From positions 10,592-74,591 of the forward strand of contig NCJT01000003.1 of NCBI GenBank assembly GCA_002282565.1: 64,000 nt of DNA, given 5' to 3'. The notes below the pieces were generated by a model. The model did no database searches and was not told the origin of the DNA. It saw nothing but the letters and a program-made list of their open reading frames with translations. Of this stretch, positions 828 to 57,885 are shown one piece after another (position 1 is the first letter of the stretch; every line of letters starts with the position of its first letter). The DNA is from Hyphomonas sp. 34-62-18. Lineage in GTDB: Bacteria; Pseudomonadota; Alphaproteobacteria; Caulobacterales; Hyphomonadaceae. Made by a program: the position numbers and the translations under genes.

Positions 828-2020
828 GCCGTCAGCCCCATCTTCTTCAGCGGCGCCCCGAACCCACCGGCGACCAGCCCGGCAAGGACCGGCGGGGCGG
901 GCCAGAGGCGTAGCAGCGGCGCGGCAAGCCGGTCGCGCAGCCAGGGGATCATCGTCCCGTCAGACTGATAGACGGGCGTGAACGCCCAGGTCATCAGCTG
1001 GTAGAGGCGGACATGCCCAGCGCGGATTTTAAGGAACCGGCGCAGCGCGGTGGCAATATCAGTTTCATCCTGCAGCGCATGGGCAAGGCCGTACGCGTCC
1101 AGCAACGCCATATTGGCCCCCTGCCCGAGCTGGGGGCTGGCGGCATGCCAGGCATCTCCGATGTGCACGAGGCGGCCTTCCACGGGCGCGCGGTGGGTGC
1201 GGTGCCGGTAGCGGGCGAATGTCAGCTGCTCATGATCCGTGATCTGATCGAGCAGCGCTTCCGTCTCTGGCCAGAGCGTGTGGGCAGCATCTTTCCAATG
1301 GGAGAGCGGCGCCGCGCGGAATGCCTCATACCCGTCGGCGCGGATGGACCAGAAATAGGTGAGGCTGACAGGCGCCTCCGGCGCGGCGCGCCCCGATGGC
1401 ATCACGCCGGCCATCTTGCGGGCCGCTTCATAACGCTGCTCCAACGCGGCTTTGTTGAACGGGCTGGTATCGGGCCAGGGCAGCGTTGCCCAGAGCGCGC
1501 CATAGGGAAGTTCTGTCCGGGGCGGAGTGGAGAGCGGCGAGCGCACACCGAGCGCATCGATAACCAGATCATACGGACCGTGCTGGCCACCTAAAGCGTC
1601 CGTCAGTGTACCTTCCGATTTTCCGGCCGCGCGGATCCGGGTTGCCGGCACCAGGCGCGCGCCCGCGGCCAACGCGGCTTCCTGCAGCACGCCGAACAGT
1701 ACGGAGCGCTGGATGCCAAGACCGGAGAGGCCCTCACGCAGGGCGGTGTAGCGCACATCCAGAACGGCGCGGCCGGTATCCACTGAAATCCCATGCAGGC
1801 GCGCAATCGGGCTGCCCAGCGCTTCGGCCCTCTCCCTCAGGCCCATGACGCCGAGCACGGCGAGCCCCGTTTCCTGCAGCATCAGGCCAGAGCCGACCGG
1901 ACCGGCAGTCTCGAACTGATCAAACAGGGTAACCCTGTGTCCCGCCCGCGCCAGCAATGCGGCTGCCGCCAGCCCGCCGATCCCGGCGCCTGCGATCCCT
2001 ATGCTGAACTGCTGCGCCAT
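818..2020 (-). CDS. FAD-dependent monooxygenase (class A flavoprotein, UbiH/salicylate hydroxylase-like)
   Basis: 400 aa. N-terminal dinucleotide fold GIAGAGIGGLAAAALLARAGHRVTLFD and C-terminal GDAWHAASPQLGQGANMALLDA motif. Overlaps the mutM end convergently by 10 nt. Confidence 0.8.
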   Translation of the reverse strand: MAQQFSIGIAGAGIGGLAAAALLARAGHRVTLFDQFETAGPVGSGLMLQETGLAVLGVMGLRERAEALGSPIARLHGISVDTGRAVLDVRYTALREGLSGLGIQRSVLFGVLQEAALAAGARLVPATRIRAAGKSEGTLTDALGGQHGPYDLVIDALGVRSPLSTPPRTELPYGALWATLPWPDTSPFNKAALEQRYEAARKMAGVMPSGRAAPEAPVSLTYFWSIRADGYEAFRAAPLSHWKDAAHTLWPETEALLDQITDHEQLTFARYRHRTHRAPVEGRLVHIGDAWHAASPQLGQGANMALLDAYGLAHALQDETDIATALRRFLKIRAGHVRLYQLMTWAFTPVYQSDGTMIPWLRDRLAAPLLRLWPAPPVLAGLVAGGFGAPLKKMGLTAYR

Positions 2021-2101
2021 GCTGCCCCATCCCGGCCAAGCCTCATCGCCTAGCCGCAGACTTGACCATTCAAAATGCAGCGCCCGATGGCAACCCCGCC
2101 G

Positions 2102-3064
2102 CTATTCCCGAAGACGGCTGCCCCGGGCATTCAGGTTGATCGTCATGGCTGGCCCCTCATCGGCGGGCGTTAGGATGAGATAGCCGCGCGCGCGGTCTAT
2201 CTGGACGCGGAAATGAGAAAGAAGGTCCAGCCCCAGCAGCATGGCCGGCTCGTCATTCAGGCCGATATCGTGGAACATCGCCGGGTCCGCCACGATCATA
2301 TTGAGGCGGCTGATATTGAAACGCGCCACTGACAGGCGCTTCACGCTGGCAACGGACACAGACAACGTGCCACCTGTGGCGCCCTGGAGGCTGCGGGTTT
2401 TCTCTTCGTCAGGACGGGCTTTGGCCGCCTGCGCCATCTGCGAATTGATGAAGCTGAAGGGGGAGCCCGTGTCGATGAGGGCCTTGCCTTTGACGCCGTT
2501 GACCTTCACTTCGGCAAAGAGCAGGCCGTTTTCAATCGTCAGCTTGCCCTTGCCGGAGCTGCGGCCATTGCTCTGCGGCCGGCCGTCATAAATGGAGAGG
2601 CGGCCATTCAGGAAATCAAAGTCGAGCACATCGCCGCCAAAGGAGGTAGCGGGGATGACGAGCGGCCCGCCGGGCATCTGCTCCCGGTTGTTATAGGCCG
2701 CGCTGATCTCGAAGGCGCGCACCCCTTCGCGGCTGAGATTGCCAATACTGACCACAGGAAATTCCCGCAGGCCGAGCAGCCCGTAAACAGGCATTTTGAT
2801 TTCGTCCGGAGGCGGCGCATCTATTCCGACGCGCGCCGCTGCCGAGGCATCAATCATCGCAATCGTCGCGGCCGTGTCGATGATGGCGGGAAGTTGCAGC
2901 GTGTCGTTCACCGTGAAGGGCGTTTGAATATAGCCTGCGGGGCTGACCGATAGCGGGAAGACCAAGTGGCGCGCCGAAGCCCCGGCGGGCATCGCGGCGC
3001 AGAGAAAAGCCGCCAGAACAGCGCTTAGCCGGGCAAACCTGCCCAGGGACACCAATCTGCGCAT
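2102..3064 (-). CDS. Secreted retropepsin-like aspartic protease with two tandem half-domains
   Basis: ORF 2102..3121 trimmed to MRRLVSLGRFARLSAVLAAFLCAAMPAGASA (signal peptide). Two catalytic-type motifs, IIDTAATIAMID and LIDTGSPFSFIN. Each is followed by a GxD/LLGLDLL-type flap or dimer segment. Confidence 0.7.
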   Translation of the reverse strand: MRRLVSLGRFARLSAVLAAFLCAAMPAGASARHLVFPLSVSPAGYIQTPFTVNDTLQLPAIIDTAATIAMIDASAAARVGIDAPPPDEIKMPVYGLLGLREFPVVSIGNLSREGVRAFEISAAYNNREQMPGGPLVIPATSFGGDVLDFDFLNGRLSIYDGRPQSNGRSSGKGKLTIENGLLFAEVKVNGVKGKALIDTGSPFSFINSQMAQAAKARPDEEKTRSLQGATGGTLSVSVASVKRLSVARFNISRLNMIVADPAMFHDIGLNDEPAMLLGLDLLSHFRVQIDRARGYLILTPADEGPAMTINLNARGSRLRE

Positions 3065-3157
3065 CAGCGGGTCCTCCCATGTTTCCGGCTGTTTTCCCGG
3101 TATTTGAGCGGAGAATGCCACAGAAAGCTTGTCGCCGCCAGAAGGGTGGCCGCCGCT

Positions 3158-4309
3158 TCAGACCATGCCGCCATCCGTGGGCAGGCCAAAGAGGATGCGG
3201 CCCGTCAACTCCAGTGTCGCCGGCGCTGTCACGATATGCTGGGTGATGGCATGCGCGTCGCGGAAGCGGCGCTGCAGGTCGCTCGCCTCAAACAGCGCTG
3301 CGCCGCCGCCAAGATCATACAAGGTCCGGCAGATGTCCGCGCCGGTGCGGGTCATGTGGGTGCAGGCAAGGCGCAGATCGGCGCGCGCTTCCATCGGAAT
3401 ACTCCCCTCCCCCTGCGCAATCGTCCAGACACGGTCAATCTCGGCAAAGAGATAGGCCCGGGCTGCGCGCCAGGCCGCCTCGCAGCGGGCATAATCGGCC
3501 TGCATGCTCTGGCGTTCGCTGAGCGTTTTCGCCGAGCCCTGGCTTTTCTTGACGGTGGCAAGCGCATTAAACGCGTCCAGCGCGCCGCGCGCATTGCCGA
3601 GCGCCACGGCGGACACGCCAAGCGCCAGCAAGCCGAAGGCGGGAAACTTGAACAATGCGCCAGTCTCATGCGGCGTGTCTGCCACCAGAGATACAGACCG
3701 GCCGCGCGGCACGAGGATGTCCTTCACCTCGATGTCACCCGATCCTGTGCCCTTCAGCCCCATCACATGCCAGGTATCGTGCAGGGTGGCCTCTGAAGCC
3801 GGGAACACCATCATCCGAGTATCCGGGGCGCCGCTGGGCAACCGTTTCATCTCGCCATTTTCCCAGACCGTGCAGCCTCCGCAGAGCCAAGTGCAGTTGG
3901 CCGAACCCGACCCCCACTGCCAGCGCCCGGTGACGCGATAGTTCTCTCCCTCCACCACCGCCTTGCCCATAGGGGCGAACACGCCGCCGGTAATCGTCAG
4001 CGGATCAGCATAGACCTCTTGCGCATGTTCGGGCGCCATATAGGCGGCATTCAGCGCCGTGGTCGCCGCGATCATCACGCACCAGCCGGCGCTGGCATTG
4101 GCGCGGGCGGCCGCTTCGGTCACCTCGACAATCTCGCGCGGGCTGAGCTCCAGACCGCCAAGGGATTTCGGCGTCACCATCCGGAAGGCGCCAGCGGCGG
4201 CGAGCTTTGCCGCGAGGTCTGCCGGAAGGCGGCGAGCCTCTTCCATCTCAGCGGCGCGGGCAGCGAGTTCCGGCAGGAGCGGCGCCAGCTGGTCAAGCAG
4301 TGTCAGCAT
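3158..4309 (-). CDS. Acyl-CoA dehydrogenase-fold family protein (ACAD-like or flavin-dependent monooxygenase subgroup)
   Basis: 383 aa with three-domain ACAD-like layout. The C-terminal helical segment DLQRRFRDAHAITQH is typical of the family. Substrate unknown. Confidence 0.7.
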   Translation of the reverse strand: MLTLLDQLAPLLPELAARAAEMEEARRLPADLAAKLAAAGAFRMVTPKSLGGLELSPREIVEVTEAAARANASAGWCVMIAATTALNAAYMAPEHAQEVYADPLTITGGVFAPMGKAVVEGENYRVTGRWQWGSGSANCTWLCGGCTVWENGEMKRLPSGAPDTRMMVFPASEATLHDTWHVMGLKGTGSGDIEVKDILVPRGRSVSLVADTPHETGALFKFPAFGLLALGVSAVALGNARGALDAFNALATVKKSQGSAKTLSERQSMQADYARCEAAWRAARAYLFAEIDRVWTIAQGEGSIPMEARADLRLACTHMTRTGADICRTLYDLGGGAALFEASDLQRRFRDAHAITQHIVTAPATLELTGRILFGLPTDGGMV

Positions 4310-7621: not shown

Positions 7622-8521
7622 TCAGCGGAACACGCGCGGCTTCTTTGCCATGAAGCGCTGTGTTGCCTCATGGTATCGCAAAGCGCGCCCCCCCGGCGCA
7701 AGCCCATAGGTTCGCTCGCGCAGGAACTCCATCAGATCACGCCGTTTTCCGGCCGCTTCCAGCATCGCCGGGCTCAAAGTTTCACCAATACCGACCGTCA
7801 GCGTCTTACCCATCCGCCGGCGCACCTCGCGGAAGACGAGCGCAAGGCGCAGCTCCAGCGACAGGTGCGAGGCGATCTGGAAAAGGCGCGAATTCTGCCC
7901 CTCGAAGAAAACCGGCGTCACAGCGGCGCGGCCATGGGTGATGAGTTTCGCCGTGAACGGCTTCCAGTCATCATCCACGGCCAGGGGATCAAACGGGCCG
8001 GGCGTTGTCGACACACCGCCCGCCGGAAACACGATCACGCACCCGCCCGCCTTCACATGCGCTAGCGCCGCCTTGCGCATCGAGATATTGGCCGCCACGG
8101 CCTCCCGCGTTCCGGCAAAGTCCACCGGCAACAGATACGGTTTTGCCTCGGGCACGGCATCCAGAACAGAATTGGTCAGCACCCTGAAATCCTGCCGCCG
8201 CCGCCCGACCAGCCAGCTGATGACGAGCCCATCCAGCACGCCGAAGGGGTGGTTCGCCACAATCACCAGAGGCCCCTCGCCCGGCATGGCGGCGAGTCGC
8301 GCCTCGTCAAACAGGACGGAAAGCTGCAGCAAGCGAATCGCTGCATCGAAAAAGCCGGTTTCGCCCAGCTCCCCGGCACGGTAGCGCTCATAGAGGCGGG
8401 CAAGTTTTGGCTGTCCCGTTGCCCGTTCCACGGCGCGCACCAGCGCCCGCTTCAGCGGGTCGTCGAAATACGCCGCATAGGAAAGTTCCGGCGCGGCAGC
8501 AGTGTCCATCAGAGCCGCCAC
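7622..8521 (-). CDS. Lysophospholipid/glycerolipid acyltransferase family protein (PlsC-like)
   Basis: HxxxxD acyltransferase motif in VIVANHPFGVLDG, and VIVFPAGG block. An alternative ATG at 8509 overlaps the upstream stop (TGATG). Confidence 0.7.
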   Translation of the reverse strand: MAALMDTAAAPELSYAAYFDDPLKRALVRAVERATGQPKLARLYERYRAGELGETGFFDAAIRLLQLSVLFDEARLAAMPGEGPLVIVANHPFGVLDGLVISWLVGRRRQDFRVLTNSVLDAVPEAKPYLLPVDFAGTREAVAANISMRKAALAHVKAGGCVIVFPAGGVSTTPGPFDPLAVDDDWKPFTAKLITHGRAAVTPVFFEGQNSRLFQIASHLSLELRLALVFREVRRRMGKTLTVGIGETLSPAMLEAAGKRRDLMEFLRERTYGLAPGGRALRYHEATQRFMAKKPRVFR

Positions 8522-9669
8522 ATCCGCGCGAGGTTGTTCTTCTGCATATCAGATGATCCGCCTACGATTGGCATGCCCAGAAGATCACGCAGGTTGCGCT
8601 CGATATCGTAAGCATCCGACAGACCATAGGCCCCGATCACCTGCTGACAGGCGAGGCCAATCTCAACGCCGGTATCGGCCACATAGAGCTTTGCCATCGC
8701 CGTCTCTGACGAGCAGGGCTGGCCCGTGCCCGCGAGCCACGCGGCGTGATAGAGCATGTGGCGGCAGGCGGCGAGTTTCGTCCGGGCGGTGACGAGCTTG
8801 TGGGCAATTGCCTGATGCTGGCCTATGCGCTTGCCGAACTGTTCGCGCTCGCCGGCATAGCGCCAGGCTTCCTCCAGCGCGGCGCGGGCAAGGCCGAAGG
8901 CGACTGCCGTGATCTCGATCTTCTCCACGTCCAGCGCGCGGCCGGCGAGCGCCTCCCAGCCTTTGTTCCATTTCTCCGGCCCACCGACAATGGCCGTTTC
9001 GGGAAGGCGCACATCATCCAGGAACACATCCATCGAATGGGTATAGCGCAGGTTCGCATGCTCGATCGGCGCCATGGTGACGCCTTTTGCCTTTGTCGGC
9101 ACAAGGACGAAGGTAAGGTTACCATGCCGTGCGCCCGGCTCACCGGAGCGGCAGAGGCAGTAGATATAGTCCGCCCAGTCCGCCCCGGTACACCAGCGCT
9201 TGGCGCCCTGGATGACGATCTCACCCCCCTGGCGCTCCACGCGCGTCTCGACGCTTGGCAGGTCTCCGCCGACATTCGGCTCCGACAGGCCATAGGCGAG
9301 GAAAAGTTCCCCGCGCGCCAGCTTCGGCAGCAGCTCTTCTTTCTGCGCCTTCGATCCGTTCTCGGAAATATTTAGCCCGCCATAGAAGGCGGCATGGATA
9401 TAAGGCCCGGCCATGCTGGGCCCGCCCTGGCAGAGTTCCTCGATCACGGCGGCGGCGGCGTAAATGTCCTCCCCCTGCCCGCCATACTCTTCCGGAATGG
9501 TCAGGCCGATCAGCCCCATTTCCGCAATCTCGCGGAAAAGGCCCCTGTCCCACGTAGCCTCACGGTCCCATTGCCGGCGCTTCTCGCGCGGCATCTTTTC
9601 GGCCACCCAGCGGGAAAGCTGGCGGCGGATTTCAGTCACATGCTCAGGTTCTGCGGCAAAATAGGTCAT
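8509..9669 (-). CDS. Acyl-CoA dehydrogenase
   Basis: 386 aa with canonical ACAD blocks: YGLSEPNVGGD, QFGKRIGQHQAIAHKL, and C-terminal IVGGSSDMQKNNLAR. Confidence 0.9.
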   Translation of the reverse strand: MTYFAAEPEHVTEIRRQLSRWVAEKMPREKRRQWDREATWDRGLFREIAEMGLIGLTIPEEYGGQGEDIYAAAAVIEELCQGGPSMAGPYIHAAFYGGLNISENGSKAQKEELLPKLARGELFLAYGLSEPNVGGDLPSVETRVERQGGEIVIQGAKRWCTGADWADYIYCLCRSGEPGARHGNLTFVLVPTKAKGVTMAPIEHANLRYTHSMDVFLDDVRLPETAIVGGPEKWNKGWEALAGRALDVEKIEITAVAFGLARAALEEAWRYAGEREQFGKRIGQHQAIAHKLVTARTKLAACRHMLYHAAWLAGTGQPCSSETAMAKLYVADTGVEIGLACQQVIGAYGLSDAYDIERNLRDLLGMPIVGGSSDMQKNNLARMWRL

Positions 9670-10550: not shown

Positions 10551-10644
10551 GGCTCAAACGTCCTCTTCGGCCCGCTTCAGGTCTCACAAACAACGCCGCA
10601 ATTCAGGGGAAAGGCAGGCCCGGAACCCCGGCTTCCCTGCTTCT

Positions 10645-10710
10645 CGGCCCTTTAGCGAGTTGTTTAACGTGGCTGCAAGCCGGCCGGCCAAATCACCACG
10701 AAAGCGCATT
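10645..10710 (-). promoter_or_regulatory. SAM-II (SAM-alpha, metA-type) riboswitch
   Basis: The minus strand reads UCGUGGUGAUUUGGCCGGCCGGCUUGCAGCCACGUUAAACAACUCGCUAAAGG. It has the GAUUUGGC, GGCUUG and GCUAAAG hallmarks and a GUGG/CCAC P1, about 100 nt upstream of metA. Confidence 0.75.
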
Positions 10711-23347: not shown

Positions 23348-23803
23348 ATGCCAAGGCCCAAACCCTTCTGGAAAACCAAGACCCTGGAGGAAATGACCCC
23401 GGAGGAATGGGAAAGCCTGTGCGATGGCTGCGGCAAATGCTGTGTCGTCAAGCTGGAAGACGAAGACACCGGGGCGCTCGCCTATACGCGGCTGCACTGC
23501 AAGCTGCTGGATGGCAGCACATGCCAATGCTCTGACTATGCCAACCGCCGCCAGCATGTGCCCGACTGCGTGCAGCTGACCCCTGTGGTGGTCGAACAGG
23601 TAGACTGGCTGCCCCGCACCTGCGCCTACCGGCTGATCGATGAGGGCAAGCCCCTGCCCGCCTGGCACCACCTCGTTTGCGGCGACCGCGAGCGCATCCA
23701 CGAACTCGGCCACTCCATCCGTGGGCAGACTGTCTCGGAAGAGACCGTCTTCGAGGAAGACGAGATCGACTGGGTAATAGATTGGGACGGCACTGAACCT
23801 TAA
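23348..23803 (+). CDS. ycgN: YcgN family cysteine-cluster protein (UPF0260)
   Basis: PFWKTKTLEEMTPEEWESLCDGCGKCCVVKLEDEDTG...WLPRTCAYRL..GKPLPAWH aligns closely with E. coli YcgN as I recall it. Confidence 0.85.
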   Translation: MPRPKPFWKTKTLEEMTPEEWESLCDGCGKCCVVKLEDEDTGALAYTRLHCKLLDGSTCQCSDYANRRQHVPDCVQLTPVVVEQVDWLPRTCAYRLIDEGKPLPAWHHLVCGDRERIHELGHSIRGQTVSEETVFEEDEIDWVIDWDGTEP

Positions 23804-23867
23804 TGGTCCGCCGCTGCAGCCTGCCCCGTTCAGGCCTCCTTAACAGCGCCCATGTCATGATGGGGAA

Positions 23868-24767
23868 ATGGACGTTCTGCCCGCCTTCCTTGACCATCTG
23901 ACCCGTGAGCGCCGCATGGCCGCCAAGACGGTGGAGGCCTATGGCAGCGACCTCTCTTTCTTCCTGGCATTCCTGCGGGTGCATATGGGTGGGGAACCCT
24001 CCCTCGCCCTGCTGGCAGACGTCCGCGCGCGCGACATCCGCGCCTATCTGGCCGAGCGTCGCCGCGAGGGCCTCTCTGACGCGAGCGTGGCGCGCATCCT
24101 CTCTTCCATCAAGGCGCTCTATCGCTGGGTGGACCGCGCCCATGGCATCAACAATGCCGAGGTCGGCTATCTGCAAGGCCCTCGCCGGCCCCAGCGCCTG
24201 CCCCGCCCGGTTTCCATCGATGCCGCGCGCGACCTCATCTCCGAGGCCGAAAGCGAGCCGGATCAGGAGCCCTGGATCGGCGCGCGCGACGCGGCTGTGC
24301 TTTCGCTGCTTTACGGCGCGGGCCTGCGTATTTCAGAGGCCCTCAGCCTGACGGGCGCTGACCTTCCGGCCCCTGAGCGCCTGCGCATCAAGGGGAAAGG
24401 CGGCAAGGTCCGCATCGTGCCGCTGATCCCGGCTGTGCGTGACGCCATTCATGCGTATGCGGAGATCTGCCCCTGGGCGCTGACACGCGACAAGCCCCTC
24501 TTCCGGGGCGCCAAAGGCGGCGCGCTGAACCCGCGCCTCATCCAGGGCGTGATGCAGCGCATGCGCGCCTATCTGGGCCTGCCGGAAACGGCCACGCCCC
24601 ACGCATTGCGCCATGCGTTCGCTACGCATCTGCTGGCAAACGGGGCTGACCTGCGCGCCATCCAGACGCTTCTGGGCCATGCCTCCCTCTCCACCACGCA
24701 GGTCTATACAGGCATCGACTCCTCGCGCCTTCGCGAAGTTCACGCCGCCGCCCACCCGCGCGCCTGA
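23868..24767 (+). CDS. xerC: Tyrosine recombinase XerC (chromosome dimer resolution)
   Basis: 299 aa. Catalytic blocks LLYGAGLRISEAL, HALRHAFATHLL and LLGHASLSTTQVYT. Confidence 0.85.
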   Translation: MDVLPAFLDHLTRERRMAAKTVEAYGSDLSFFLAFLRVHMGGEPSLALLADVRARDIRAYLAERRREGLSDASVARILSSIKALYRWVDRAHGINNAEVGYLQGPRRPQRLPRPVSIDAARDLISEAESEPDQEPWIGARDAAVLSLLYGAGLRISEALSLTGADLPAPERLRIKGKGGKVRIVPLIPAVRDAIHAYAEICPWALTRDKPLFRGAKGGALNPRLIQGVMQRMRAYLGLPETATPHALRHAFATHLLANGADLRAIQTLLGHASLSTTQVYTGIDSSRLREVHAAAHPRA

Positions 24768-24774
24768 AGCCGCC

Positions 24775-25947
24775 TCAGGGCGCGAGCTGCGCAGTCAATG
24801 CATCAGCCAGAAGCCGGCCGCTTTCGGTCAGGGAAAGTTCCGATCCCTGCATTTTCACCCAGCCCTGCTCGGCGAACACCGCCAGCTTGTCACGCGGCAC
24901 CTGTTTGCCCGACACCAGCTCCACCCGGCGCAGGTCTACGCCTTCAGCCGCGCGCAGGCCCATGGCGAGCAGTTCGCGCGCAATGTCGAGGGGGGGAAGC
25001 TTGCCCGCATCGGCCCAGCCTTCTTGCAGCATCTGGAGACCGGCGATGTAGGCTTCCGGGCGCCGCTCAGCCTCGGTGGCATAGCGATTGCCGCTGACCG
25101 AGAGACGGCCATGCGCGCCGGGGCCAACCCCGATCCAGTCCCCGCCCCGCCAGTAAATGAGGTTGTGGCGTGACTGGTGCGCCGGCGACGCGGCATGATT
25201 GGACACTTCATAGGCCGGCAGCCCCGCCCGCGCCGTCATCTGCTGGGTGAGTTCGTAAAGGTCCGCCTGTGCATCATCCGGCATCGGAACAATATCGCCC
25301 CGCGCGGCGGCCTTTCCAAAGGCTGTCGCGGGCTCGAAAGTCAGCTCGTAAAGCGAAAGATGCGGCGCGCCGAGCGCGAGTGCGTCGGCGAGTTCGGCCT
25401 CCCAATTGGCGGGCGACTGGCCGGGGCGCGCATAGATCAGATCCATGGAAACGGACTCGAACACTTTCAGTGCCCGCTTCACCGCCTCCCCGCCTGCCTC
25501 GGCATCGTGATCGCGCCCAAGGAACGCCAAGGCAGCATCGCGCATGGACTGCACACCGATCGACAGACGCGTCACGCCCGCCCGGCGCAAACCCACAAGG
25601 TCCGCCCTCAGAACATCATTGGGGTTGGCCTCAAGCGTCACCTCAGCCCCATCCTGGAGGCCGAAGGTATCAGACGCCGCCTTCAGGATCTCGCCAACCT
25701 GTTCGGGCCGCAGCAGCGCCGGTGTGCCGCCGCCGAAATACACCGTATCCAGCGCGCCATGCTGGGGAAGCTTTCGGCGATGGGCGCGAATGTCTTCGGC
25801 GATGGCAGAAACCAGCGGCTCGGTCACCCGGTCCTTGGCGGCGTAGACGTTGAAATCACAATAGGGGCAGATGCGAGCGCAGTAGGGCCAGTGGATGTAG
25901 ATACCGAAACCGAAATGCGGGCCGAACGGGGCAAAAACCTGCGTCAT
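24775..25947 (-). CDS. hemW: Radical SAM heme chaperone HemW (HemN-like, oxygen-independent coproporphyrinogen oxidase family)
   Basis: 390 aa. [16 protein letters not shown] radical-SAM cluster motif. 4-nt overlap with rdgB. Confidence 0.85.
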
Positions 25948-26543
25948 GCGAGCAGCGCCGCGCGGAGTTTTTCAACCGCCCGCGCCCGGTGGCTCATGGC
26001 ATGTTTCCGCGCAGGCTCCATCTCGCCAAAAGTCTCGGTCTCGCCATCGGCCACGAAAACGGGGTCATAGCCAAACCCCTTCTCCCCTCGCGGCGGCCAG
26101 ACGAGCGTGCCATGCACCTCGCCCTCATAAACCGCTTCGGTGCCATCAGGCCAGGCCACGGCCAGCGCGCAGACAAACTTCGCTGACCGGTCCGGTGAAC
26201 CCGACTTCTGAAGCTCTGCCTCGACCTTTTCCATTGCCTTGTAAAAATCGCGCGGCTCGCCCGCCCAACGGGCCGAATAGATGCCCGGCTGGCCGCCGAG
26301 GGCGGTCACGGACAGGCCAGAATCATCCGACAGGGCCGGCAGGCCCGTCGCCTTCATGGCGGCGCGGGCTTTCAGCAGCGCATTGCCGGCAAAACTATCC
26401 TCGGTTTCTTCTGGCTCATCCAGACCGAGTTCAAGGGCAGAAACCACCTCAAAACCATGGGGCGCGAACAGATCTTTCAGTTCGGACACCTTGCCCTTGT
26501 TGTGTGTAGCTGCCACGAGTTTTCCGGGCACGAGGCGGGGCAT
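25944..26543 (-). CDS. rdgB: Non-canonical purine NTP pyrophosphatase RdgB (HAM1 family)
   Basis: ORF 25944..26600 trimmed to [22 protein letters not shown]. Contains [17 protein letters not shown] and FGYDPVF blocks. Confidence 0.85.
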
Positions 26544-26604
26544 AGCCGTAGCATTATTCACAGTTATGTGGCTCCATTCTTGCTTTATGCGCGAATGCAT
26601 ATAT

Positions 26605-26622
26605 CGTTATTCGGCAATAACG
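26605..26622. promoter_or_regulatory. Perfect palindrome CGTTATT-CGGC-AATAACG in the rdgB / DUF2975 divergent region (candidate operator)
   Basis: 7-bp arms with a 4-nt spacer in an AT-rich 128-nt intergenic region. Confidence 0.35.
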
Positions 26623-26671
26623 GGACGGCGCGCAGGCAAAGTTCCGCTTCATAAACCATCAACCGAACTGG

Positions 26672-27217
26672 GTGAAAAGGCCGGGTATGACAAAGACAGG
26701 CCGGAATTCGATGGCAGAGGCGATGACCGTTCTGGTCACCGTGGCGATGTGGATTGCAGGCGCCTTCGGCGTCATCGGCATTCCCGTGCTGAGCCTTGGC
26801 CTGATCGCGAGCCTCTCCAATGGTGAGGCGTCGCTGCCGGGCATAGAGGCGCTGGCAGACGGCGTGTCGCCGGGCAGCTTCGTGATCGCGCTGGGCTTGC
26901 TGTGCGTCATTGTGCCGGGTGTGATCTTCATCTGCATCCAGATGCGCCGAATCTTGCTGACCCTGGTGGAGGGCGATCCCTTCGTGCCGGAAAATGCCGG
27001 GCGCCTCTCGCGGATTGGCGTCGCCATCGCTGCAATGGAGATCATCCGGATTGTGACACTCCTGGTTGTGCGCGCCATGCCCAGCCTCGTGGGAGACGCG
27101 CCGCCAAAGCTCTCAACCCAGCTCATACTGTGGATTTCCGTGGCAGCGCTGTTCATCCTTTCCCAAGTCTTCCGGGAAGGCACCCGCCTTCGCGACGAAG
27201 AAAAAATGACGATCTGA
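26672..27217 (+). CDS. DUF2975 family membrane protein
   Basis: GTG 26672 or ATG 26687. Four TM helices. LVEGDPFVPENAGRLSRIGVAIAA and C-terminal FREGTRLRDEEKMTI resemble DUF2975. Followed by its usual HTH partner. Confidence 0.65.
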   Translation: MKRPGMTKTGRNSMAEAMTVLVTVAMWIAGAFGVIGIPVLSLGLIASLSNGEASLPGIEALADGVSPGSFVIALGLLCVIVPGVIFICIQMRRILLTLVEGDPFVPENAGRLSRIGVAIAAMEIIRIVTLLVVRAMPSLVGDAPPKLSTQLILWISVAALFILSQVFREGTRLRDEEKMTI

Positions 27218-27232
27218 GGAGCACTGACGGAC

Positions 27233-27472
27233 ATGACCATTCGCGTGACCCTCGACCGTGTGCTTCTGGAACGCCGCATGTCGCTCACTGAGCTTTCCGA
27301 GCGCGTGGGCGTTACCTTGGCCAACCTGTCGATCCTGAAAACCGGCAAGGCAAAAGCGATCCGCTTCTCAACCCTCGAAGCGCTCTGCCGCGAATTGAAA
27401 TGCCAGCCGGGCGACCTGCTCGTCTTCGACACGGAAGGCGAAGAAGACGAACGCCAGGTCGCGGCTGAATAG
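27233..27472 (+). CDS. YozG-type (HTH_26 / XRE-like) small transcriptional regulator
   Basis: 79 aa. IRVTLDRVLLERRMSLTELSERVGVTLANLSILKTGKAKAIRFSTLEALCRELKCQPGDLL is the classic family sequence. Confidence 0.8.
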   Translation: MTIRVTLDRVLLERRMSLTELSERVGVTLANLSILKTGKAKAIRFSTLEALCRELKCQPGDLLVFDTEGEEDERQVAAE

Positions 27473-27474
27473 CG

Positions 27475-27522
27475 ATCAATGGAATTAGATTGATTTTTGT
27501 GGATCAATGGAATATCATTGAT
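27475..27522. promoter_or_regulatory. Tandem pair of ATCAAT-N8-ATTGAT palindromes (candidate operators) directly upstream of the SatD-like gene
   Basis: Site 1 at 27475..27494 (ATCAATggaattagATTGAT). Site 2 at 27503..27522 (ATCAATggaatatcATTGAT, extended to GGATCAATG/CATTGATCC). Starts are 28 nt apart. Confidence 0.6.
27490..27518 (+). promoter_or_regulatory. Predicted sigma-70-type promoter giving a leaderless SatD-like mRNA
   Basis: TTGATT (27490-27495), 17-nt spacer, TATCAT (27513-27518). The ATG at 27525 lies 7 nt after the -10 and has no SD. Both hexamers overlap the palindromes. Confidence 0.4.
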
Positions 27523-27524
27523 CC

Positions 27525-28205
27525 ATGCTCCCCCCCGATCACGCCTGTCTTCTTCTTTGCGACCTCAAAGGGTCAAGTGGTTTCGGCCCTGAAAAAGGGG
27601 GTGAGCTTCTTGCGCAACTGGAAGCCCTGCTGGTTCAGCTGAACGAACGCCACGCAGCTGATATCATTCTGCCGTTGGAGATTAGTTACGGTGACGAAAT
27701 TGCCAGTTTGCTCCTCCATCCGGAGGCCGCTTTCGAGATTGTGCGGGCGCTGCGGAAGGGGCTGGGCGTTCAAATGGCATTCCGCTTCGCGGTCGTGTTC
27801 GGCCAGATTGGGGCCAGAACCTCCAATATCCGCCAAATCGGCGGGGAGGTTTTCACTATCGCCAATGCAGCCATCAGCCGGCTGAAGCGGCAGAACCGGT
27901 TTGGCGAGTGGCATATTTTCAAAGATGCCCGCGATATTGAACTCACCCTGCTGACAAACCTCTGCCAAGGTTTCATCGCCCGGATGACGGACTATCAGTT
28001 TCTAGTTTACATCCTCTTGGCCGAAGGCTTGTCACAGAAAGCGGTCGCCGAACGGCTGGGCAAATATCCGCAATCAGTTTCTGACGCGGTCCGCCGGGCC
28101 GAAATAGATCTTGTGATCGAAGCAGAAAATCAAATAATCGATCGACTGCGAGCCTATAATCAATCGAATCTCGTTGTTTTGGAGAAATCAATTGAATCCA
28201 ATTGA
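27525..28205 (+). CDS. SatD-family protein: nucleotidyl-cyclase-like N-domain fused to a C-terminal HTH
   Basis: 226 aa. LLLCDLKGSSGF and ISYGDEIASLL acidic motifs, then FRFAVVFGQIG, fit the SatD N-domain pattern (GDxxxS..GDEFQ..RFGIG). The C-terminal LSQKAVAERLGKYPQSVSDAVRRAE is a sigma-r4/LuxR-like HTH. Confidence 0.6.
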   Translation: MLPPDHACLLLCDLKGSSGFGPEKGGELLAQLEALLVQLNERHAADIILPLEISYGDEIASLLLHPEAAFEIVRALRKGLGVQMAFRFAVVFGQIGARTSNIRQIGGEVFTIANAAISRLKRQNRFGEWHIFKDARDIELTLLTNLCQGFIARMTDYQFLVYILLAEGLSQKAVAERLGKYPQSVSDAVRRAEIDLVIEAENQIIDRLRAYNQSNLVVLEKSIESN

Positions 28206-28206
28206 T
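28159..28206. promoter_or_regulatory. Second copy of the 48-bp double-palindrome cassette, inside the SatD 3' end
   Basis: ATCAATcgaatctcGTTGTT (28159..28178, degenerate) and ATCAATtgaatccaATTGAT (28187..28206, perfect). Again 28 nt apart. 32 of 48 positions are identical to 27475..27522. Confidence 0.55.
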
Positions 28207-28578
28207 ATAGCCATCCTGGTCGGCATGGCGCTTGGATCGCATATTCTCTCCACGCTGATCATCCGCCTCGGCATCCCCCGCCTCAAATCCGGCGATATCC
28301 CCGCCACCGAGGGCGGCGCCCTTCCCGAGAGCACCAAGGGCCGCGTCTTTGATCTGGGATCGACCGGCTTCTGGATTGGGCTGTGTGAAACACTCCTGAT
28401 TTTCATTCTGGTCAGTGCCCAGCAGTTCAGCGCCCTGGCGATTATCATCGGGGTCAAACAGTTCGTGCGTAGCGACAAGATCCAGCAGAACCCGTCTTAC
28501 TACCTGCTCGGTACCTTCTGCAACCTGACGATCGCCACACTGTTCGCCCTAACGGCAAACCAGATCATCAGCGGCTGA
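28192..28578 (+). CDS. Small 4-TM membrane protein, partner of the SatD-like gene (possibly DUF3307/SatC-like)
   Basis: The TTG at 28192 follows a GGAGA SD (alternatives TTG 28174, ATG 28225). It overlaps the SatD stop (28203-28205). Four predicted helices. Family not verifiable by eye. Confidence 0.5.
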   Translation: MNPIDIAILVGMALGSHILSTLIIRLGIPRLKSGDIPATEGGALPESTKGRVFDLGSTGFWIGLCETLLIFILVSAQQFSALAIIIGVKQFVRSDKIQQNPSYYLLGTFCNLTIATLFALTANQIISG

Positions 28579-28585
28579 AGCCCGC

Positions 28586-29314
28586 TTAGAGCCCCAGCGC
28601 CGCCCGCTGCGCAGCAAAGAGTTCGCCGCAGCCTTTCTCGGCGAGGCGCATCATCTCATCCAGTTCCGGGCGCGACATGGGACGGGATTCGCCTGTGCCC
28701 TGGACCTCAATGAAGCCGCCATCAGAGCTCATCACCACGTTCATGTCTGCCTCGCCGGCCGAATCCTCGGGGTAATCCACGTCCAGCACCGGCATGTCCT
28801 GGAAGAGACCCACCGAAATCGCAGCGGCCTGTTTCAGGATCGGGTCCGCCTTGATCACACCTTCAGTCTGAAGATAGCGGCAGGCCATGGCGAGGGCGAC
28901 AAAGCCGCCGGTGATCGACGCCGTGCGCGTGCCGCCATCGGCCTGGATCACGTCGCAATCGATGGTGATCGTATTCTCGCCGAGCGCAGCCAGGTTCACC
29001 ACTGAGCGCATCGAGCGCCCAATCAGGCGCTGGATTTCCTGGGTGCGGCCAGACTGTTTGCCCGCCGCTGCCTCCCGGCGCCCGCGCGTGTGCGTGGCGC
29101 GCGGCAGCATGCCATACTCGCCGGTCACCCAGCCCTCGCCCTTGCCCTTCATCCAGCCGGGCACACCCTTCTCCCAGCTGGCCGTGCACAGCACATGCGT
29201 ATGACCGAACTTGGCGAGGCACGAGCCTTCAGCGTAGCGCGTTACGCCGGTTTCGAGCGAAATCGGGCGCAGCTGGTCAAAAGCGCGGCCCGAGGGGCGA
29301 ACAAGATTTGGCAT
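28586..29314 (-). CDS. rph: Ribonuclease PH
   Basis: ORF 28586..29851 trimmed to [32 protein letters not shown]. Contains [17 protein letters not shown] and [18 protein letters not shown] blocks. Confidence 0.9.
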
Positions 29315-29404: not shown

Positions 29405-31075
29405 ATGGCCACGGATATCGAGATTGCCCGCGCGGCGAAGAAACAGCCGATCCAGGAGATCGCCGCCCGCATCGGCGCCGCCCCCGAAGACATCATCCCT
29501 TACGGTCATGACAAGGCAAAACTCTCGGCCGCCTTCCTTCAGCGCCAGTCCGCCCGTCCCGATGGCAAGCTCATCCTCGTCACCGCCATCAACCCCACCC
29601 CCGCCGGCGAGGGCAAGACCACCACCTCTATCGGCCTTGCTGACGCGATGAACCGCATCGGGGCAAACACCCTCCTCTGCCTGCGCGAGCCATCGCTTGG
29701 CCCCTGTTTCGGCATGAAGGGTGGCGCCACAGGCGGCGGCCTCGCCCAGATCGTGCCGATGGAAGACATCAACCTGCACTTCACCGGCGACTTCCACGCC
29801 ATCACGTCGGCGCACAACCTCCTCTCCGCCCTGGTCGATAACCACATCCACTGGGGCGGCGAGCCGAAGCTGGAAACCGCTCGCACCAGCTGGCGCCGCG
29901 TGATGGACATGAACGACCGTAGCCTGAGGAATATCGTCTCCGGCCTCGGCGGGCCCGGCAATGGTTCGCCCTCGGAAACCGGCTTTGACATCACCGTTGC
30001 CTCCGAGGTGATGGCCATTCTCTGCCTTGCGACCGATGCTGAAGATCTGGAGGCCCGCCTCTCCCGCATCATCGTCGGCTACACGCGCGAGAAGGCCGCC
30101 GTCACTGCCGCAGACATAAAAGCCACCGGCGCCATGATGGCGCTGCTGCGCGATGCCATGCTACCAAACCTTGTCCAGACGCTCGAAAACAATCCCTGCC
30201 TCGTACATGGCGGCCCTTTCGCCAATATCGCCCATGGCTGCAACTCGGTCATGGCAACCAGCGCAGCCCTGAAAATGGCAGATTATGTCGTCACCGAAGC
30301 GGGTTTTGGCGCAGACCTGGGCGCGGAGAAGTTTCTCAACATCAAATGCCGCCAGGCTGGCCTTGCGCCGGACGCCGTGGTTCTCGTCGCCACCATCCGC
30401 GCCCTGAAGATGCATGGCGGGCTGGCGAAAGATGATCTCGGCAAAGTCAGCTATGAAGCGCTGGAGAAAGGCCTCGCCAATCTCGCCCGCCATATCGAAA
30501 ACCTGCGCAGTTTCGGCTTGCCGGTCGTCGTTGCCATCAACCGGTTCACCACCGACACTGAAGGCGAAGTTCACGCGCTACAGACTTATTGCGATAAACT
30601 CTCCGTACCCGTCGCGCTCTGCACCCATTGGGCAGAAGGCGGCAAAGGCGCCGAAAGCCTCGCCCGCAGTGTGGTCAAGCTGATCGAAGAGGGCACAGCC
30701 GATTTCAAGCCGCTGTACCCGGACAATCTTTCCCTGATGGAAAAGATTGAAACAGTGGCAAAATCCATCTACCGGGCCGACCGGGTGGAAGCCACGCGCG
30801 CAGTCAAAAACCAGCTTGCCGCGTGGGAAAAGGCGGGCTTCGGCCACCTGCCCGTCTGCATGGCCAAGACCCAGTACAGCTTCTCGACGGACCCTGCCCT
30901 GCTCGGCGCCCCGGAAGGCCATGTGGTCCGTCTTCGGGAAGTGCGCCTCGCTGCCGGGGCGGGCTTCGTCGTCGCCATTTGCGGTGACATCATGACGATG
31001 CCGGGCCTCCCCCGCCGCCCCGCGGCCGAACACATTCACCTCAACGATCAGGGCCAGATCGAAGGGCTGAACTAG
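29405..31075 (+). CDS. fhs: Formate--tetrahydrofolate ligase
   Basis: 556 aa. [12 protein letters not shown] start, [11 protein letters not shown]-loop, [10 protein letters not shown] block. Confidence 0.95.
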
Positions 31076-54237: not shown

Positions 54238-54344
54238 TGGTTTTAGTAGCCCCTGCTCAACCTGTCCGCTTAACCAATGCGCGCCCGCGCCAAAGGTTCC
54301 CCGGCCCCCTTCCCCCGGCGCCGCAATCTGCGTATGGTCTGCCC

Positions 54345-54440
54345 ATCCGAGGGGCGCGCATGGCAAGCGCTGAGATGGGGCCGATACCGCTCCAGCACCC
54401 TTTGAACCTGATCCGGGTCGCGCCGGCGTAGGAACGGAAA
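54345..54440 (+). promoter_or_regulatory. TPP (THI-box) riboswitch
   Basis: GGGGCGCG..GCUGAGA..ACCCUUUGAACCUGAUCCGGGUCGCGCCGGCGUAGGAA immediately upstream of thiC. Confidence 0.9.
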
Positions 54441-54452
54441 CCGAGACGCTAA

Positions 54453-56384
<1,932 letters not shown>

Positions 56385-56488: not shown

Positions 56489-57484
56489 TCATAGCGAGAA
56501 GAAGCCTTCCCTAGCCGCCACGCCTAAGTATTTTGGGACATCAGGCGTCCCCTGCCAAATTCTACTTTCTGGCAAACCCATGCGCTTCATCGCCATGAAG
56601 CCGTTCATTTCGCCCGAGAAGTTGAGGGCCGACGCTTTTGAACCCCATTGGCCAGCCTGCAGTAGAGCGCAGTTATTTTCTTCAAATGCAAAGCCCACGC
56701 TGTAGACCGATCCACACTCTTTCAGGAGTTCGACCGCTTCAATTGCCGCAGGAGGCCTCTCAGCAAGACTATCAAGAATGAATTTTATGTTCTCAATCTG
56801 CTTTCGATAAAATGTTGGAGACAGCGAATCGTTGCTGATCTCATCTAGCTTACCATGAACATGCACAACTCGTGGTAAAAGCTCATCCGGTGTATCGCGA
56901 AAACGTTCATTGTTTCTGACAAACCATCCAAAGCTCTCTTCGATCGCTCGATCATAGTTCAATGTGACAAAAGAAAGCCTATTTTGCTCAAGGTCGTCTG
57001 GGTTTTTGGCACCTGACAGGAATTGATTCGCAAGAATGCCCAACCAGTTCGGCCTGCGGGGCCCAGTGGTGATGTAGGGACTTCGCCAAGGGAAACACCT
57101 CTCTCCATATCTCCAGCCGGTATTTTTCTGAAGCATCTGGAAATGTGATTTTATGAGCATCCAAGCTGTGAAGTACTTGGAGATCTTGCTTCTGCTGGGG
57201 TTCTGGTACGCATACAGATCAATCGAGTAACTTGAACTGGAGCTAAGGTGCTCAATCAGTGACGGAAAAGCGTTTCGCGCCTCTCCATCATTTGCGAAAC
57301 AAACAAAATCCCAAAACGACGCAAAGTACTGAGCAAAGTTATCAGATTGGTTGTCTCTGGTTCTAGGGTCTTCCGCAGCGGCAGCGGAATAAATCTGATC
57401 TCCTGTTGGCAAACCGAATTCTGCCGACGCGCCCGCACCGACAAGAATGACCGTGGGCTTGATGAACATTTTGCGCATTTCCAT
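56489..57484 (-). CDS. Stand-alone SIR2-like (SIR2_2 / DHS-like NAD-binding fold) protein, putative NADase
   Basis: ORF 56489..57628 trimmed to Met 57484 (alternatives 57478, 57469). Ordered motifs VILVGAGASAEFGLPTG, TLNYD, VVHVHG, SVGFAFEE. The gene is markedly GC-poor. Confidence 0.7.
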   Translation of the reverse strand: MEMRKMFIKPTVILVGAGASAEFGLPTGDQIYSAAAAEDPRTRDNQSDNFAQYFASFWDFVCFANDGEARNAFPSLIEHLSSSSSYSIDLYAYQNPSRSKISKYFTAWMLIKSHFQMLQKNTGWRYGERCFPWRSPYITTGPRRPNWLGILANQFLSGAKNPDDLEQNRLSFVTLNYDRAIEESFGWFVRNNERFRDTPDELLPRVVHVHGKLDEISNDSLSPTFYRKQIENIKFILDSLAERPPAAIEAVELLKECGSVYSVGFAFEENNCALLQAGQWGSKASALNFSGEMNGFMAMKRMGLPESRIWQGTPDVPKYLGVAAREGFFSL

Positions 57485-57570
57485 CTTGGATATGCAATCA
57501 AGAATAGAATGACTCGCCCAAAGGCACAATGTGATGTTTCGAGAGCCAATATTGTATTCCGGCCTCAGGC

Positions 57571-57885
57571 CTAATGATTCAACAAGCTCGCCCCCATCAC
57601 CCCATTCGCCCGTCTCGCCTTGGCCCATTCAAAGCTCCCGGCACGGAAGGCGCGGCAGGCTTCGGGGCGGTCTTCGTAGATGCTGCAGGCGGCCTTGCCG
57701 TTTGACAGGTCAAGGTGGATGCAGTGGCCGCAATCGAAGCGGACGAAGGTGCGCCCGTCTTCGGTGAAGAGGCCTGTCTCAGGCAGGGAGCGGCCAGCGT
57801 CCCAGGGGAGGAGTTCGAGATAGCGGGGGTTCCGGCTGAAACAGCAGGCGCCGCAGGACACACAGTCAAACGACACATCGGGCAT
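57571..57885 (-). CDS. YkgJ family cysteine-cluster protein (UPF0153)
   Basis: 104 aa. CVSCGACCF plus later Cys residues (CGHCIHL, CSIYEDRPEACRAF). Confidence 0.75.
   Translation of the reverse strand: MPDVSFDCVSCGACCFSRNPRYLELLPWDAGRSLPETGLFTEDGRTFVRFDCGHCIHLDLSNGKAACSIYEDRPEACRAFRAGSFEWAKARRANGVMGASLLNH

Follow-up and report, generated by a model that had tools for sequence, protein, structure and literature searches.

How a block of four plus-strand genes came to stand inside a conserved minus-strand operon is the question raised by positions 26,544 to 28,585 of a 64,000-nucleotide stretch (the window) of contig NCJT01000003.1 from Hyphomonas sp. 34-62-18. At this place, genes for a DUF2975 membrane protein, a small helix-turn-helix (HTH) regulator, a SatD-like protein and a small four-helix membrane protein separate rph from rdgB and hemW. 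These four genes had been recognized in a first-pass annotation of the sequence, and their identities and coordinates are upheld by the open reading frame (ORF) listing and by Pfam and NCBIfam (Table 1). In that annotation, the genes were also taken to be a single acquired accessory module that split the operon and forced rdgB-hemW onto a new promoter. The splitting and the separate promoter are borne out by the comparison with related genomes. The single module has to be given up, since the two gene pairs differ in phylogenetic depth and composition and each pair occurs elsewhere without the other. We read the block, with moderate confidence, as two operons of two genes each, independent and self-regulated, which stand stacked in a gap of the rph-rdgB-hemW operon that is specific to this lineage.

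For the comparison of neighbourhoods, RdgB was used as the query against one genome per GTDB species, and 80 loci were kept with 10-kb flanks, in which the window proteins were placed by tblastn. The order that had been given as common in Alphaproteobacteria, with rph, rdgB and hemW contiguous and co-oriented and hrcA divergent upstream, was seen in 37 of the 80 related loci, from Rhodospirillales, Sphingomonadales, Hyphomicrobiales, Rhodobacterales, SAR116, Micavibrio and others. The gap between rph and rdgB is -1 to 93 nt in 35 of these 37 adjacent loci, with a median of about 29 nt, and hrcA usually lies divergently upstream in them. The hemW gene follows rdgB in nearly all 80 loci. As rph and rdgB are adjacent in other orders, the interruption is derived here, and the synteny across the 80 loci indicates a genuine split of a conserved operon in this lineage. 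From the loss of contiguity with rph it follows that rdgB-hemW must have its own promoter; among sigma-70 hexamers on the minus strand, no convincing conserved pair was found for an rdgB promoter.

The DUF2975 and HTH genes make up the older half of the block. This pair was found divergently upstream of rdgB in 37 loci and in the truncated locus L002, belonging to Hyphomonas, Henriciella, Ponticaulis, unnamed Hyphomonadaceae and Hyphococcus (Parvularculaceae in the NCBI taxonomy). Every Hyphomonadaceae-like locus that was recovered has the pair at this position, and so does Hyphococcus. Across the loci, the identities of the two proteins correlate with the identity of RdgB (r = 0.83 for DUF2975 and 0.60 for the HTH protein). 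This divergence tracking rdgB, together with host-like G+C contents at third codon positions (GC3) and the lineage-wide position, points to an old, vertically inherited insertion, and on the same grounds this half of the block is not a recent acquisition. The HTH protein is 75-95% identical across the family, with a ratio of nonsynonymous to synonymous substitution rates (dN/dS) of 0.01. In the window, in Hyphomonas neptunium (L081) and in L088 it is 100% identical despite a dS of about 0.5. For a small regulator of 79 amino acids, identity in three genomes is an unusually strong constraint.

A YoaS-YozG operon was first noted in Bacillus, and in a 2026 preprint the pair is described as conserved across phyla, with AT-rich upstream regions holding inverted repeats as putative operators (bioRxiv 10.64898/2026.09.15.751765). 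The same features are found in the window, where DUF2975 comes first, a small HTH_26 gene comes second and an AT-rich upstream region holds an inverted repeat. Unlike the pairs described across phyla, the operon of the Hyphomonadaceae is fixed divergently before rdgB-hemW throughout the family, and a palindrome, TTAYCG-N5-CGATAA, is conserved in its upstream region, with its spacing kept to rdgB rather than to DUF2975. This fixed spacing suggests co-option for the control of the neighbouring housekeeping operon. In Hyphococcus-type loci (L025, positions 8186-9291; L048), two tandem DUF2975 paralogues stand before the HTH gene, and about 600 nt without a convincing ORF lie between the paralogues and the rdgB-side palindromes.

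Three conserved blocks were seen in the alignment of the DNA between rdgB and DUF2975: the Shine-Dalgarno sequence of rdgB, TCTTGCTTT and TATCGTT-N3-CGGTAA. The TTGCTT of the second block may be a promoter element of the DUF2975-HTH operon; it stands 15-17 nt ahead of TATCGT/ATCGTT and falls below the threshold of the consensus promoter scan. The third block generalizes in more distant loci to TTAYCG-N5-CGATAA. With up to two mismatches, 34 of the 37 loci contain this palindrome in the DNA between DUF2975 and rdgB, with 41 matches in 12.1 kb, compared with 7 in the other 668 kb of the same loci and 13 in 740 kb of loci without the pair, an intergenic enrichment of about 300-fold. Its place is always 40-85 nt upstream of rdgB, and five Hyphococcus-type loci with DUF2975 at a distance of more than 600 nt are no exception. 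Most likely, the YozG-like repressor has its operator in this palindrome, which would overlap the promoter that rdgB-hemW gained after its separation from rph. A perfect inverted repeat, CGTTATT-CGGC-AATAACG, at 26605-26622 of the window overlaps this candidate operator.

The start of rdgB bears on the extent of this region. It is probably the GTG at 26561 (205 amino acids) and not the ATG at 26543, since a conserved GGAGCC lies 10 nt upstream and relatives have gene calls of 205 amino acids; the GGAG 10 nt before this GTG is invariant in 22 of 23 aligned related loci. The region 26544-26671 had been described as an AT-rich boundary of 128 nt, which is correct for the later start (47.7% GC compared with 62.5% for the whole window), and with the GTG start the intergenic DNA shrinks to about 110 nt.

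The junction of the converging HTH and rph stops, in which the other two genes stand, is a variable cargo slot. From rph to the HTH gene, relatives have distances between 6 nt from stop to stop, in L001, and about 4 kb, and the cargo includes a LuxR solo, CreA, a globin, a LigB dioxygenase, and LRAT-like, GIY-YIG, beta-lactamase-family, CinA and NUDIX genes. L001 is the closest relative with full coverage (86% RdgB identity), and with its stops 6 nt apart, the tight convergent packing against rph is ancestral in this lineage. By tblastn, SatD and the small membrane protein are absent from all 80 RdgB-anchored loci. The same four genes were found at the same place in H. neptunium ATCC 15444 (membrane gene HNE_3314), in GCA_000685255.1 and on several metagenome contigs. 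According to the first-pass annotation, the same four genes in related genomes, with uniform composition, would speak against an acquired module; the arrangement does recur in H. neptunium and others, and the objection applies in part.

Elsewhere, satD has the small membrane gene beside it in at least seven further, unrelated contexts (L087, L090, L092, L094, L096, L100 and L101), in which SatD is 38-41% and the membrane protein 42-62% identical to the window proteins. In Rhodothalassium the cassette follows uvrA, and in other settings it lies beside electron transfer flavoprotein (ETF) genes, an SSF transporter gene, trpA and others; mobility genes do not go with it. SatD gave no tblastn match in 72,556 plasmids and 50,697 phages, and IMG/VR gave one partial match to the HTH only. 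At the four-gene block, the signs of a mobile element that were looked for were not found: the window has no tRNA, and there are no flanking repeats and no transposase. A gene for a XerC/D-like tyrosine recombinase (23868-24767) is syntenic in the closest Hyphomonas relatives. Between this gene and the gene for a CxxCxxCC protein, H. neptunium has five genes (L081, positions 1869-3632), for an ArsR-type HTH protein, a small ORF, two DUF1801 proteins and an AHSA1 protein; the window equivalent (23803-23868) is 64 nt, which makes this another indel between close relatives.

A repeat finder returned four copies of a 20-bp palindrome, ATCAAT-N8-ATTGAT, in two pairs with a spacing of 28 nt each (SatD boxes 1 to 4, Table 1). 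Three perfect copies and one with two mismatches stand in the cassette, compared with one copy with two mismatches in the other 62 kb of the window, and in 1.62 Mb of fetched loci perfect boxes occur only inside cassettes. The placing of boxes at -50 and -22 relative to satD is shared by the window, L081, L087, L090, L092, L094 and L100, and a third box lies at about -78 in L092 and L100. In L088 the boxes lie directly upstream of satD, in L096 (Calditrichota) they lie against the contig start, and in L101, where satD was called short, they abut its likely true start. A second box or box pair is present at the start of satE in L081, L088/L089, L090 and L101, with Rhodothalassium among them. 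The last 16 codons of satD, which hold boxes 3 and 4, have a dS of 0.22 compared with 1.45 for the whole gene, pointing to a constraint at the DNA level.

Wherever this box occurs, the recognition helix KYPQSVS of SatD is invariant; the SatD of Gillisia has another helix, with other tandem palindromes at the same position. SatD probably binds ATCAAT-N8-ATTGAT. Near satD there is a single promoter-like site, TTGATT-17-TATCAT, situated within boxes 1 and 2; its -10-like TATCAT ends 6 nt before the satD ATG, an arrangement consistent with a leaderless mRNA. In the literature that was searched, neither the tandem operator boxes nor the leaderless geometry is described for sat systems. An FNR/FixK box (TTGAT-N4-ATCAA) was considered for these repeats and rejected, as the orientation of the half-sites and the spacing differ.

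SatD consists of a domain resembling class III cyclases (residues about 1-130) and a C-terminal HTH (about 150-210). Close homologues carry a PF16264 match, and the H. neptunium copy is named 'putative satD protein'. The AlphaFold model of the window SatD has a predicted local distance difference test (pLDDT) score of 89.4, and in a Foldseek search against the PDB the top 27 matches are all class III adenylyl or guanylyl cyclases. The best of them, the adenylyl cyclases Ma1120 and Rv1900c, have E = 2e-5 and a probability of 1.0, and about 125 residues are superposed with a root-mean-square deviation of 2.2-3.3 Å. The family alignment shows D13, Y55-G-D-E58, R87 and R103 as invariant or nearly so (D13, R87 and the YGDE motif, with D57, without exception) and a conserved helix, KYPQSVSDA. 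In the C1 domain of type V adenylyl cyclase, the first metal-binding Asp is aligned to D13, and D57 would be the second, judging by motif and fold. Partly by motif, we take D13, D57 and R87 to correspond to the metal- and phosphate-binding residues of cyclases.

The fold, the two metal-binding Asp residues and the phosphate-binding Arg are thus shared with class III cyclases such as Ma1120 and Rv1900c. SatD differs from them in being fused to an HTH, in having no conserved transition-state Asn/Arg or base-specifying positions, and in length, as its cyclase-like domain of about 130 amino acids is some 40 shorter than the 160-190 of active cyclases. The positions aligned with the transition-state Asn and Arg (about 115 and 119) vary in the family. 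Because of these variable catalytic positions and the short domain, ligand binding, possibly nucleotide sensing, is favoured over catalysis as the role of the N-terminal domain.

In the comparison with H. neptunium, identity is 89-100% for the flanking proteins of the window and 90.6% for the small membrane protein, but only 69.5% for SatD. With elevated dN (0.21) and dS (1.45) and a dN/dS ratio of about 0.15, satD is under purifying selection. The gene is functional, and it is either diverging fast or has been replaced by another allele. In public annotations, two SatD homologues (L098, 2415; L101, 830) start too late, so that the first beta-strand with the conserved Asp is lost; their true starts abut the upstream repeats.

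The partner of SatD is nearly all contained in four long helices, with one additional short helix (AlphaFold model, pLDDT 81), and it is highly conserved, with many invariant polar residues. No significant match was found for it in Pfam, NCBIfam, PADLOC or PHROGs, nor in a Foldseek search against the PDB, and the DUF3307 domain (PF11750) gave no match at E values up to 10 in the window protein or in 37 family members. A profile of the family retrieves 1715 representative clusters at E <= 1e-3. Of ten long members that were checked (233-293 amino acids), eight have an N-terminal DUF3307 domain and a C-terminal half that matches the window protein. In Gillisia, a PF16264 SatD gene is followed, 1 nt on, by a DUF3307 gene of this family. 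From this match of the long members and the SatD-DUF3307 adjacency in Gillisia, the window protein would be a short SatE, consisting of the C-terminal four-helix module of the DUF3307 proteins alone.

In Streptococcus mutans, satD and satE belong to the sat (secretion and acid tolerance) operon, and the SatE of this species is presumably a DUF3307 protein. As in the S. mutans satD-satE genes, the window SatD scores above the Pfam threshold and the membrane gene comes directly after it or overlaps it, but the window pair stands alone and not downstream of ffh. The partner shares homology with the C-terminal half of the DUF3307 proteins that follow SatD in Bacteroidota, but it has no DUF3307 domain itself and is 128 amino acids long instead of about 240-275. 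PADLOC gave no defence model for the proteins of the block, returning a generic HTH (E = 5e-5) and an insignificant CARF_TM match (E = 0.037) only.

The right part of the block had been described as GC-poor, from hand counts of 30 G+C at 28081-28140 and 23 at 28141-28200, and both counts are exact. The 1-kb segments starting at 27251 and 27501 are the 4th and 6th lowest in GC of the 64 kb (z = -3.0 and -2.7), and their tetranucleotide distances are at the 96th-97th percentile. The dip is real but narrow, being confined to satD and to the boxes at the two ends of satD and not extending over the whole block. The trough at 28141-28200 is largely due to the AT-rich boxes 3 and 4. With a GC3 of 0.59, satD is the sole low gene, all neighbours having 0.68-0.81 (DUF2975 0.77, the HTH gene 0.75 and the small membrane gene 0.74-0.76); its orthologues have 0.65 in H. 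neptunium and 0.75 in L088. An atypical composition of the entire four-gene block was not observed, satD alone being deviant.

These results can be brought together in a two-layer scheme. A YoaS-YozG-type operon would have been inserted divergently before rdgB in the ancestor of the Hyphomonadaceae and Hyphococcus, cutting rdgB-hemW off from rph, and would have been vertically inherited since. Transcription of rdgB-hemW would then start from a conserved AT-rich control region of about 110 nt, shared back-to-back with the DUF2975 operon, and the YozG-like repressor would control its own operon, and probably rdgB-hemW too, through TTAYCG-N5-CGATAA. In a younger layer, a portable satD-satE cassette would fill the slot between the HTH gene and rph in the clade of H. 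neptunium and sp. 34-62-18. SatD would sit on tandem boxes that hold the -35 and -10 elements of its own, apparently leaderless, promoter, and with the second box pair over the satE start it may keep both genes repressed for as long as no ligand, possibly a nucleotide, occupies the cyclase-like domain. The identities of the genes, their synteny, distribution and composition, the folds, and the positions and enrichment of the motifs are results, whereas we infer the pairing of proteins with motifs, the positions of the promoters, the direction of regulation and the sensing of a ligand.

Several observations weigh against parts of this scheme. The window copy of the YozG-side palindrome has three mismatches to the family consensus, and as the palindrome lies beside rdgB and not beside DUF2975 in five loci, it could serve another regulator of rdgB-hemW, unrelated to the HTH protein. 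The promoter hexamers are consensus matches only, and the non-conserved Asn and Arg of SatD make its ligand and any activity a guess. The dS of satD is unusually high (1.45-2.5, compared with 0.4-1.0 in its neighbours), which could mean allelic replacement rather than evolution in place. That satD-satE was gained in one clade, and not lost or replaced in the others, is an argument from parsimony.

Other accounts of the origin of the block can be set beside the two stacked operons. It is very unlikely that all four genes are one recently acquired accessory island between rph and rdgB, as their shared orientation, their tight packing, the GC-poor right part and the interruption of an operon that is contiguous in other orders would suggest. 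This account is already contradicted by the distribution data, with DUF2975-HTH present without satD-satE in about 30 related loci and satD-satE present without DUF2975-HTH in at least seven contexts. Also, the DUF2975 and HTH genes have a host-like GC3 and diverge along with rdgB; searches for a tRNA, a transposase, flanking direct repeats and homologues on plasmids or phages gave nothing; and the recombinase gene nearby is syntenic in the closest relatives. An arrangement in which rph, DUF2975-HTH and rdgB stood together early, the pair then being lost in other orders with fusion of rph to rdgB, is extremely unlikely. It would demand several independent precise losses, far less parsimonious than one insertion, in view of the adjacency of rph and rdgB, with short gaps, in many separate orders and the confinement of the pair to one lineage.

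For the function of the satD-satE cassette, it is possible, though on balance unlikely, that the pair is an addiction module resembling toxin-antitoxin or abortive-infection systems, in which SatD represses a harmful membrane protein that is set free when SatD is lost or when the cyclase-like domain senses stress or infection. A compact and plausibly autoregulated pair of overlapping genes, operator boxes directly over the start of the membrane gene, a patchy, context-independent distribution, and a regulator that diverges quickly beside a conserved partner would all suit such a module. In Streptococcus pyogenes, satD is reported to be the single 'essential accessory gene', missing from about 29% of genomes and essential where present (PMC11323703), which is how an antitoxin, or the repressor of a toxic gene, would be expected to behave. 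However, the S. pyogenes SatD is distant and has a long DUF3307 partner, and there could be other causes, such as polarity. The membrane protein matches no toxin family, and its conserved polar residues suit a specific transporter or sensor more than a crude membrane-disrupting toxin; in addition, no PADLOC defence model was matched and nothing was found on plasmids, phages or IMG/VR contigs. That SatD is an active nucleotide cyclase or polymerase-like enzyme, whose product acts on the membrane partner in the manner of Pycsar or CBASS and whose HTH serves autoregulation only, is improbable. The class III cyclase fold is the best structural match, with a uridylate cyclase among the matches, D13, D57 and the phosphate-contacting R87 are invariant, and the gene is paired with a membrane protein. 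Against such an enzyme stand the short domain, the variable positions aligned with the catalytic Asn/Arg, a partner that is almost wholly four helices and has no cyclic-nucleotide-binding domain, and the lack of a match to any PADLOC Pycsar or CBASS model.

That inserted genes split an operon is nothing unusual in genome evolution, and the genome of H. neptunium ATCC 15444, long published, already shows this arrangement. Both operon types are known by name; what is new in detail is the short form of SatE, the pair of operator motifs and the connection with rdgB. Two stacked operons would make the locus a dated case of operon splitting, family-wide, in which the orphaned rdgB-hemW gained a short conserved control region and a palindrome beside a repressor conserved at 75-100%, and in which the slot between converging stops was filled by at least nine unrelated gene types in relatives. 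The YozG-like repressor may have been recruited in the Hyphomonadaceae to control rdgB-hemW, with its roles in cleaning the nucleotide pool and as a haem chaperone, and the rdgB-side palindrome offers a testable handle on the enigmatic YoaS-YozG pair. For SatD and SatE, the cyclase-like and HTH domains, the short partner and the promoter-embedded operator that co-varies with the recognition helix provide a first mechanistic sketch. We consider it a tentative possibility that SatD-SatE, as a widespread two-gene module (about 1,700 representative SatE-type clusters, from Bacillota and Bacteroidota to Alphaproteobacteria and Calditrichota), is a cyclase-derived nucleotide-sensing repressor gating a four-helix effector, and as such a new addiction-, stress- or defence-type switch; if true, this would explain the 'essential accessory' satD of S. 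pyogenes. H. neptunium is culturable, so these predictions are directly testable.

The features of the locus are collected in Table 1. DUF2975 has an alternative start, the ATG at 26687 (176 amino acids), which is the start called in H. neptunium. The gap between DUF2975 and the HTH gene is 15 nt and contains a GAGGAG Shine-Dalgarno sequence, and the satE start region overlaps the satD stop by 14 nt. At the right boundary, the 7 nt that had been reported between the converging stops of the small membrane gene (28578) and rph (28586) are confirmed. The gap shows no terminator-like site, shuffled sequences fold as well as its plus strand (z-score 0.2), and a weak stem of 5-6 bp is the sole structure spanning the two stops. 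The Rfam scan of the four-gene block gave no family at the gathering threshold.

Table 1. Genes and candidate regulatory elements between hemW and rph, by position in the window.
Feature	Positions	Strand	Details
hemW	24775..25947	-	TIGR00539, 255 bits; radical-SAM haem chaperone; distal gene of the rdgB-hemW unit cut off from rph
rdgB	25944..26561	-	Ham1p_like, 214 bits; XTP/dITP diphosphatase; alternative ATG start at 26543
Shine-Dalgarno sequence of rdgB (GGAG)	26572..26575	-	invariant TGGCTCC block in the intergenic alignment
TTGCTT, -35-like, putative element of the DUF2975-HTH operon	26580..26585	+	TCTTGCTTT block conserved in Hyphomonas and Henriciella loci
Candidate YozG-like operator	26601..26617		TTGCCGAATAACGATAT on the rdgB strand; consensus TTAYCG-N5-CGATAA
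DUF2975 membrane protein, YoaS-like	26672..27217	+	PF11188, 36.2 bits (cut-off 27)
Cro/C1-type HTH regulator, YozG-like, 79 aa	27233..27472	+	PF13443 HTH_26, 74.8 bits
SatD box 1	27475..27494		ATCAATGGAATTAGATTGAT; 50 nt before the satD ATG; right half gives -35-like TTGATT at 27490-27495
SatD box 2	27503..27522		ATCAATGGAATATCATTGAT; 22 nt before the satD ATG; holds -10-like TATCAT at 27513-27518
satD	27525..28205	+	PF16264, 31.3 bits (cut-off 29); 100% identical to a protein of Hyphomonas sp. 34-62-18
SatD box 3	28159..28178		two mismatches; within the satD 3' end
SatD box 4	28187..28206		perfect match; over the satE start and the satD stop
Short SatE-like membrane protein, 128 aa	28192..28578	+	TTG start at 28192; ORF opens at 28174; 99% identical to B7X53_00745
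rph (RNase PH)	28586..29314	-	TIGR01966, 361 bits; converges on the small membrane gene

Compared with the alphaproteobacterial hrcA / rph-rdgB-hemW neighbourhood, the relative orientation is the same in the window (hrcA and grpE share one strand, and rph, rdgB and hemW the opposite one), but two interruptions are present: the four-gene block separates rph from rdgB, and fhs separates hrcA from rph. The fhs gene (formate-tetrahydrofolate ligase; 29405-31075, plus strand) has this position, between rph and hrcA, in Hyphomonas loci only. The distance between hrcA and rph is about 100-300 nt in most loci outside the Hyphomonadaceae, and in Henriciella the two genes are parted by another gap, of about 1.5 kb; a second interrupted site of the neighbourhood is thus found at the hrcA/rph junction. 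Two of the loci were deposited as 'Candidatus Sulfopaludibacter sp. SbA3' (Acidobacteriota; L004) and 'Gemmatimonas sp.' (L072), and both have the hrcA/rph/rdgB/hemW arrangement typical of Alphaproteobacteria. L004 resembles Hyphomonas in having fhs, the DUF2975-HTH pair and an RdgB identity of 83%, and both contigs are probably mis-binned.

Elsewhere in the window, the stretch with the lowest GC and the most deviant tetranucleotide composition lies at 56489-57628 (minus strand; 48-50% GC) and contains an ORF of 379 amino acids without a Pfam match. This ORF is located just downstream of thiC (54477-56384), which is preceded by a thiamine pyrophosphate (TPP) riboswitch at 54340-54451. A SAM-alpha riboswitch (RF00521, 81 bits) is present at 10632-10709 on the minus strand.

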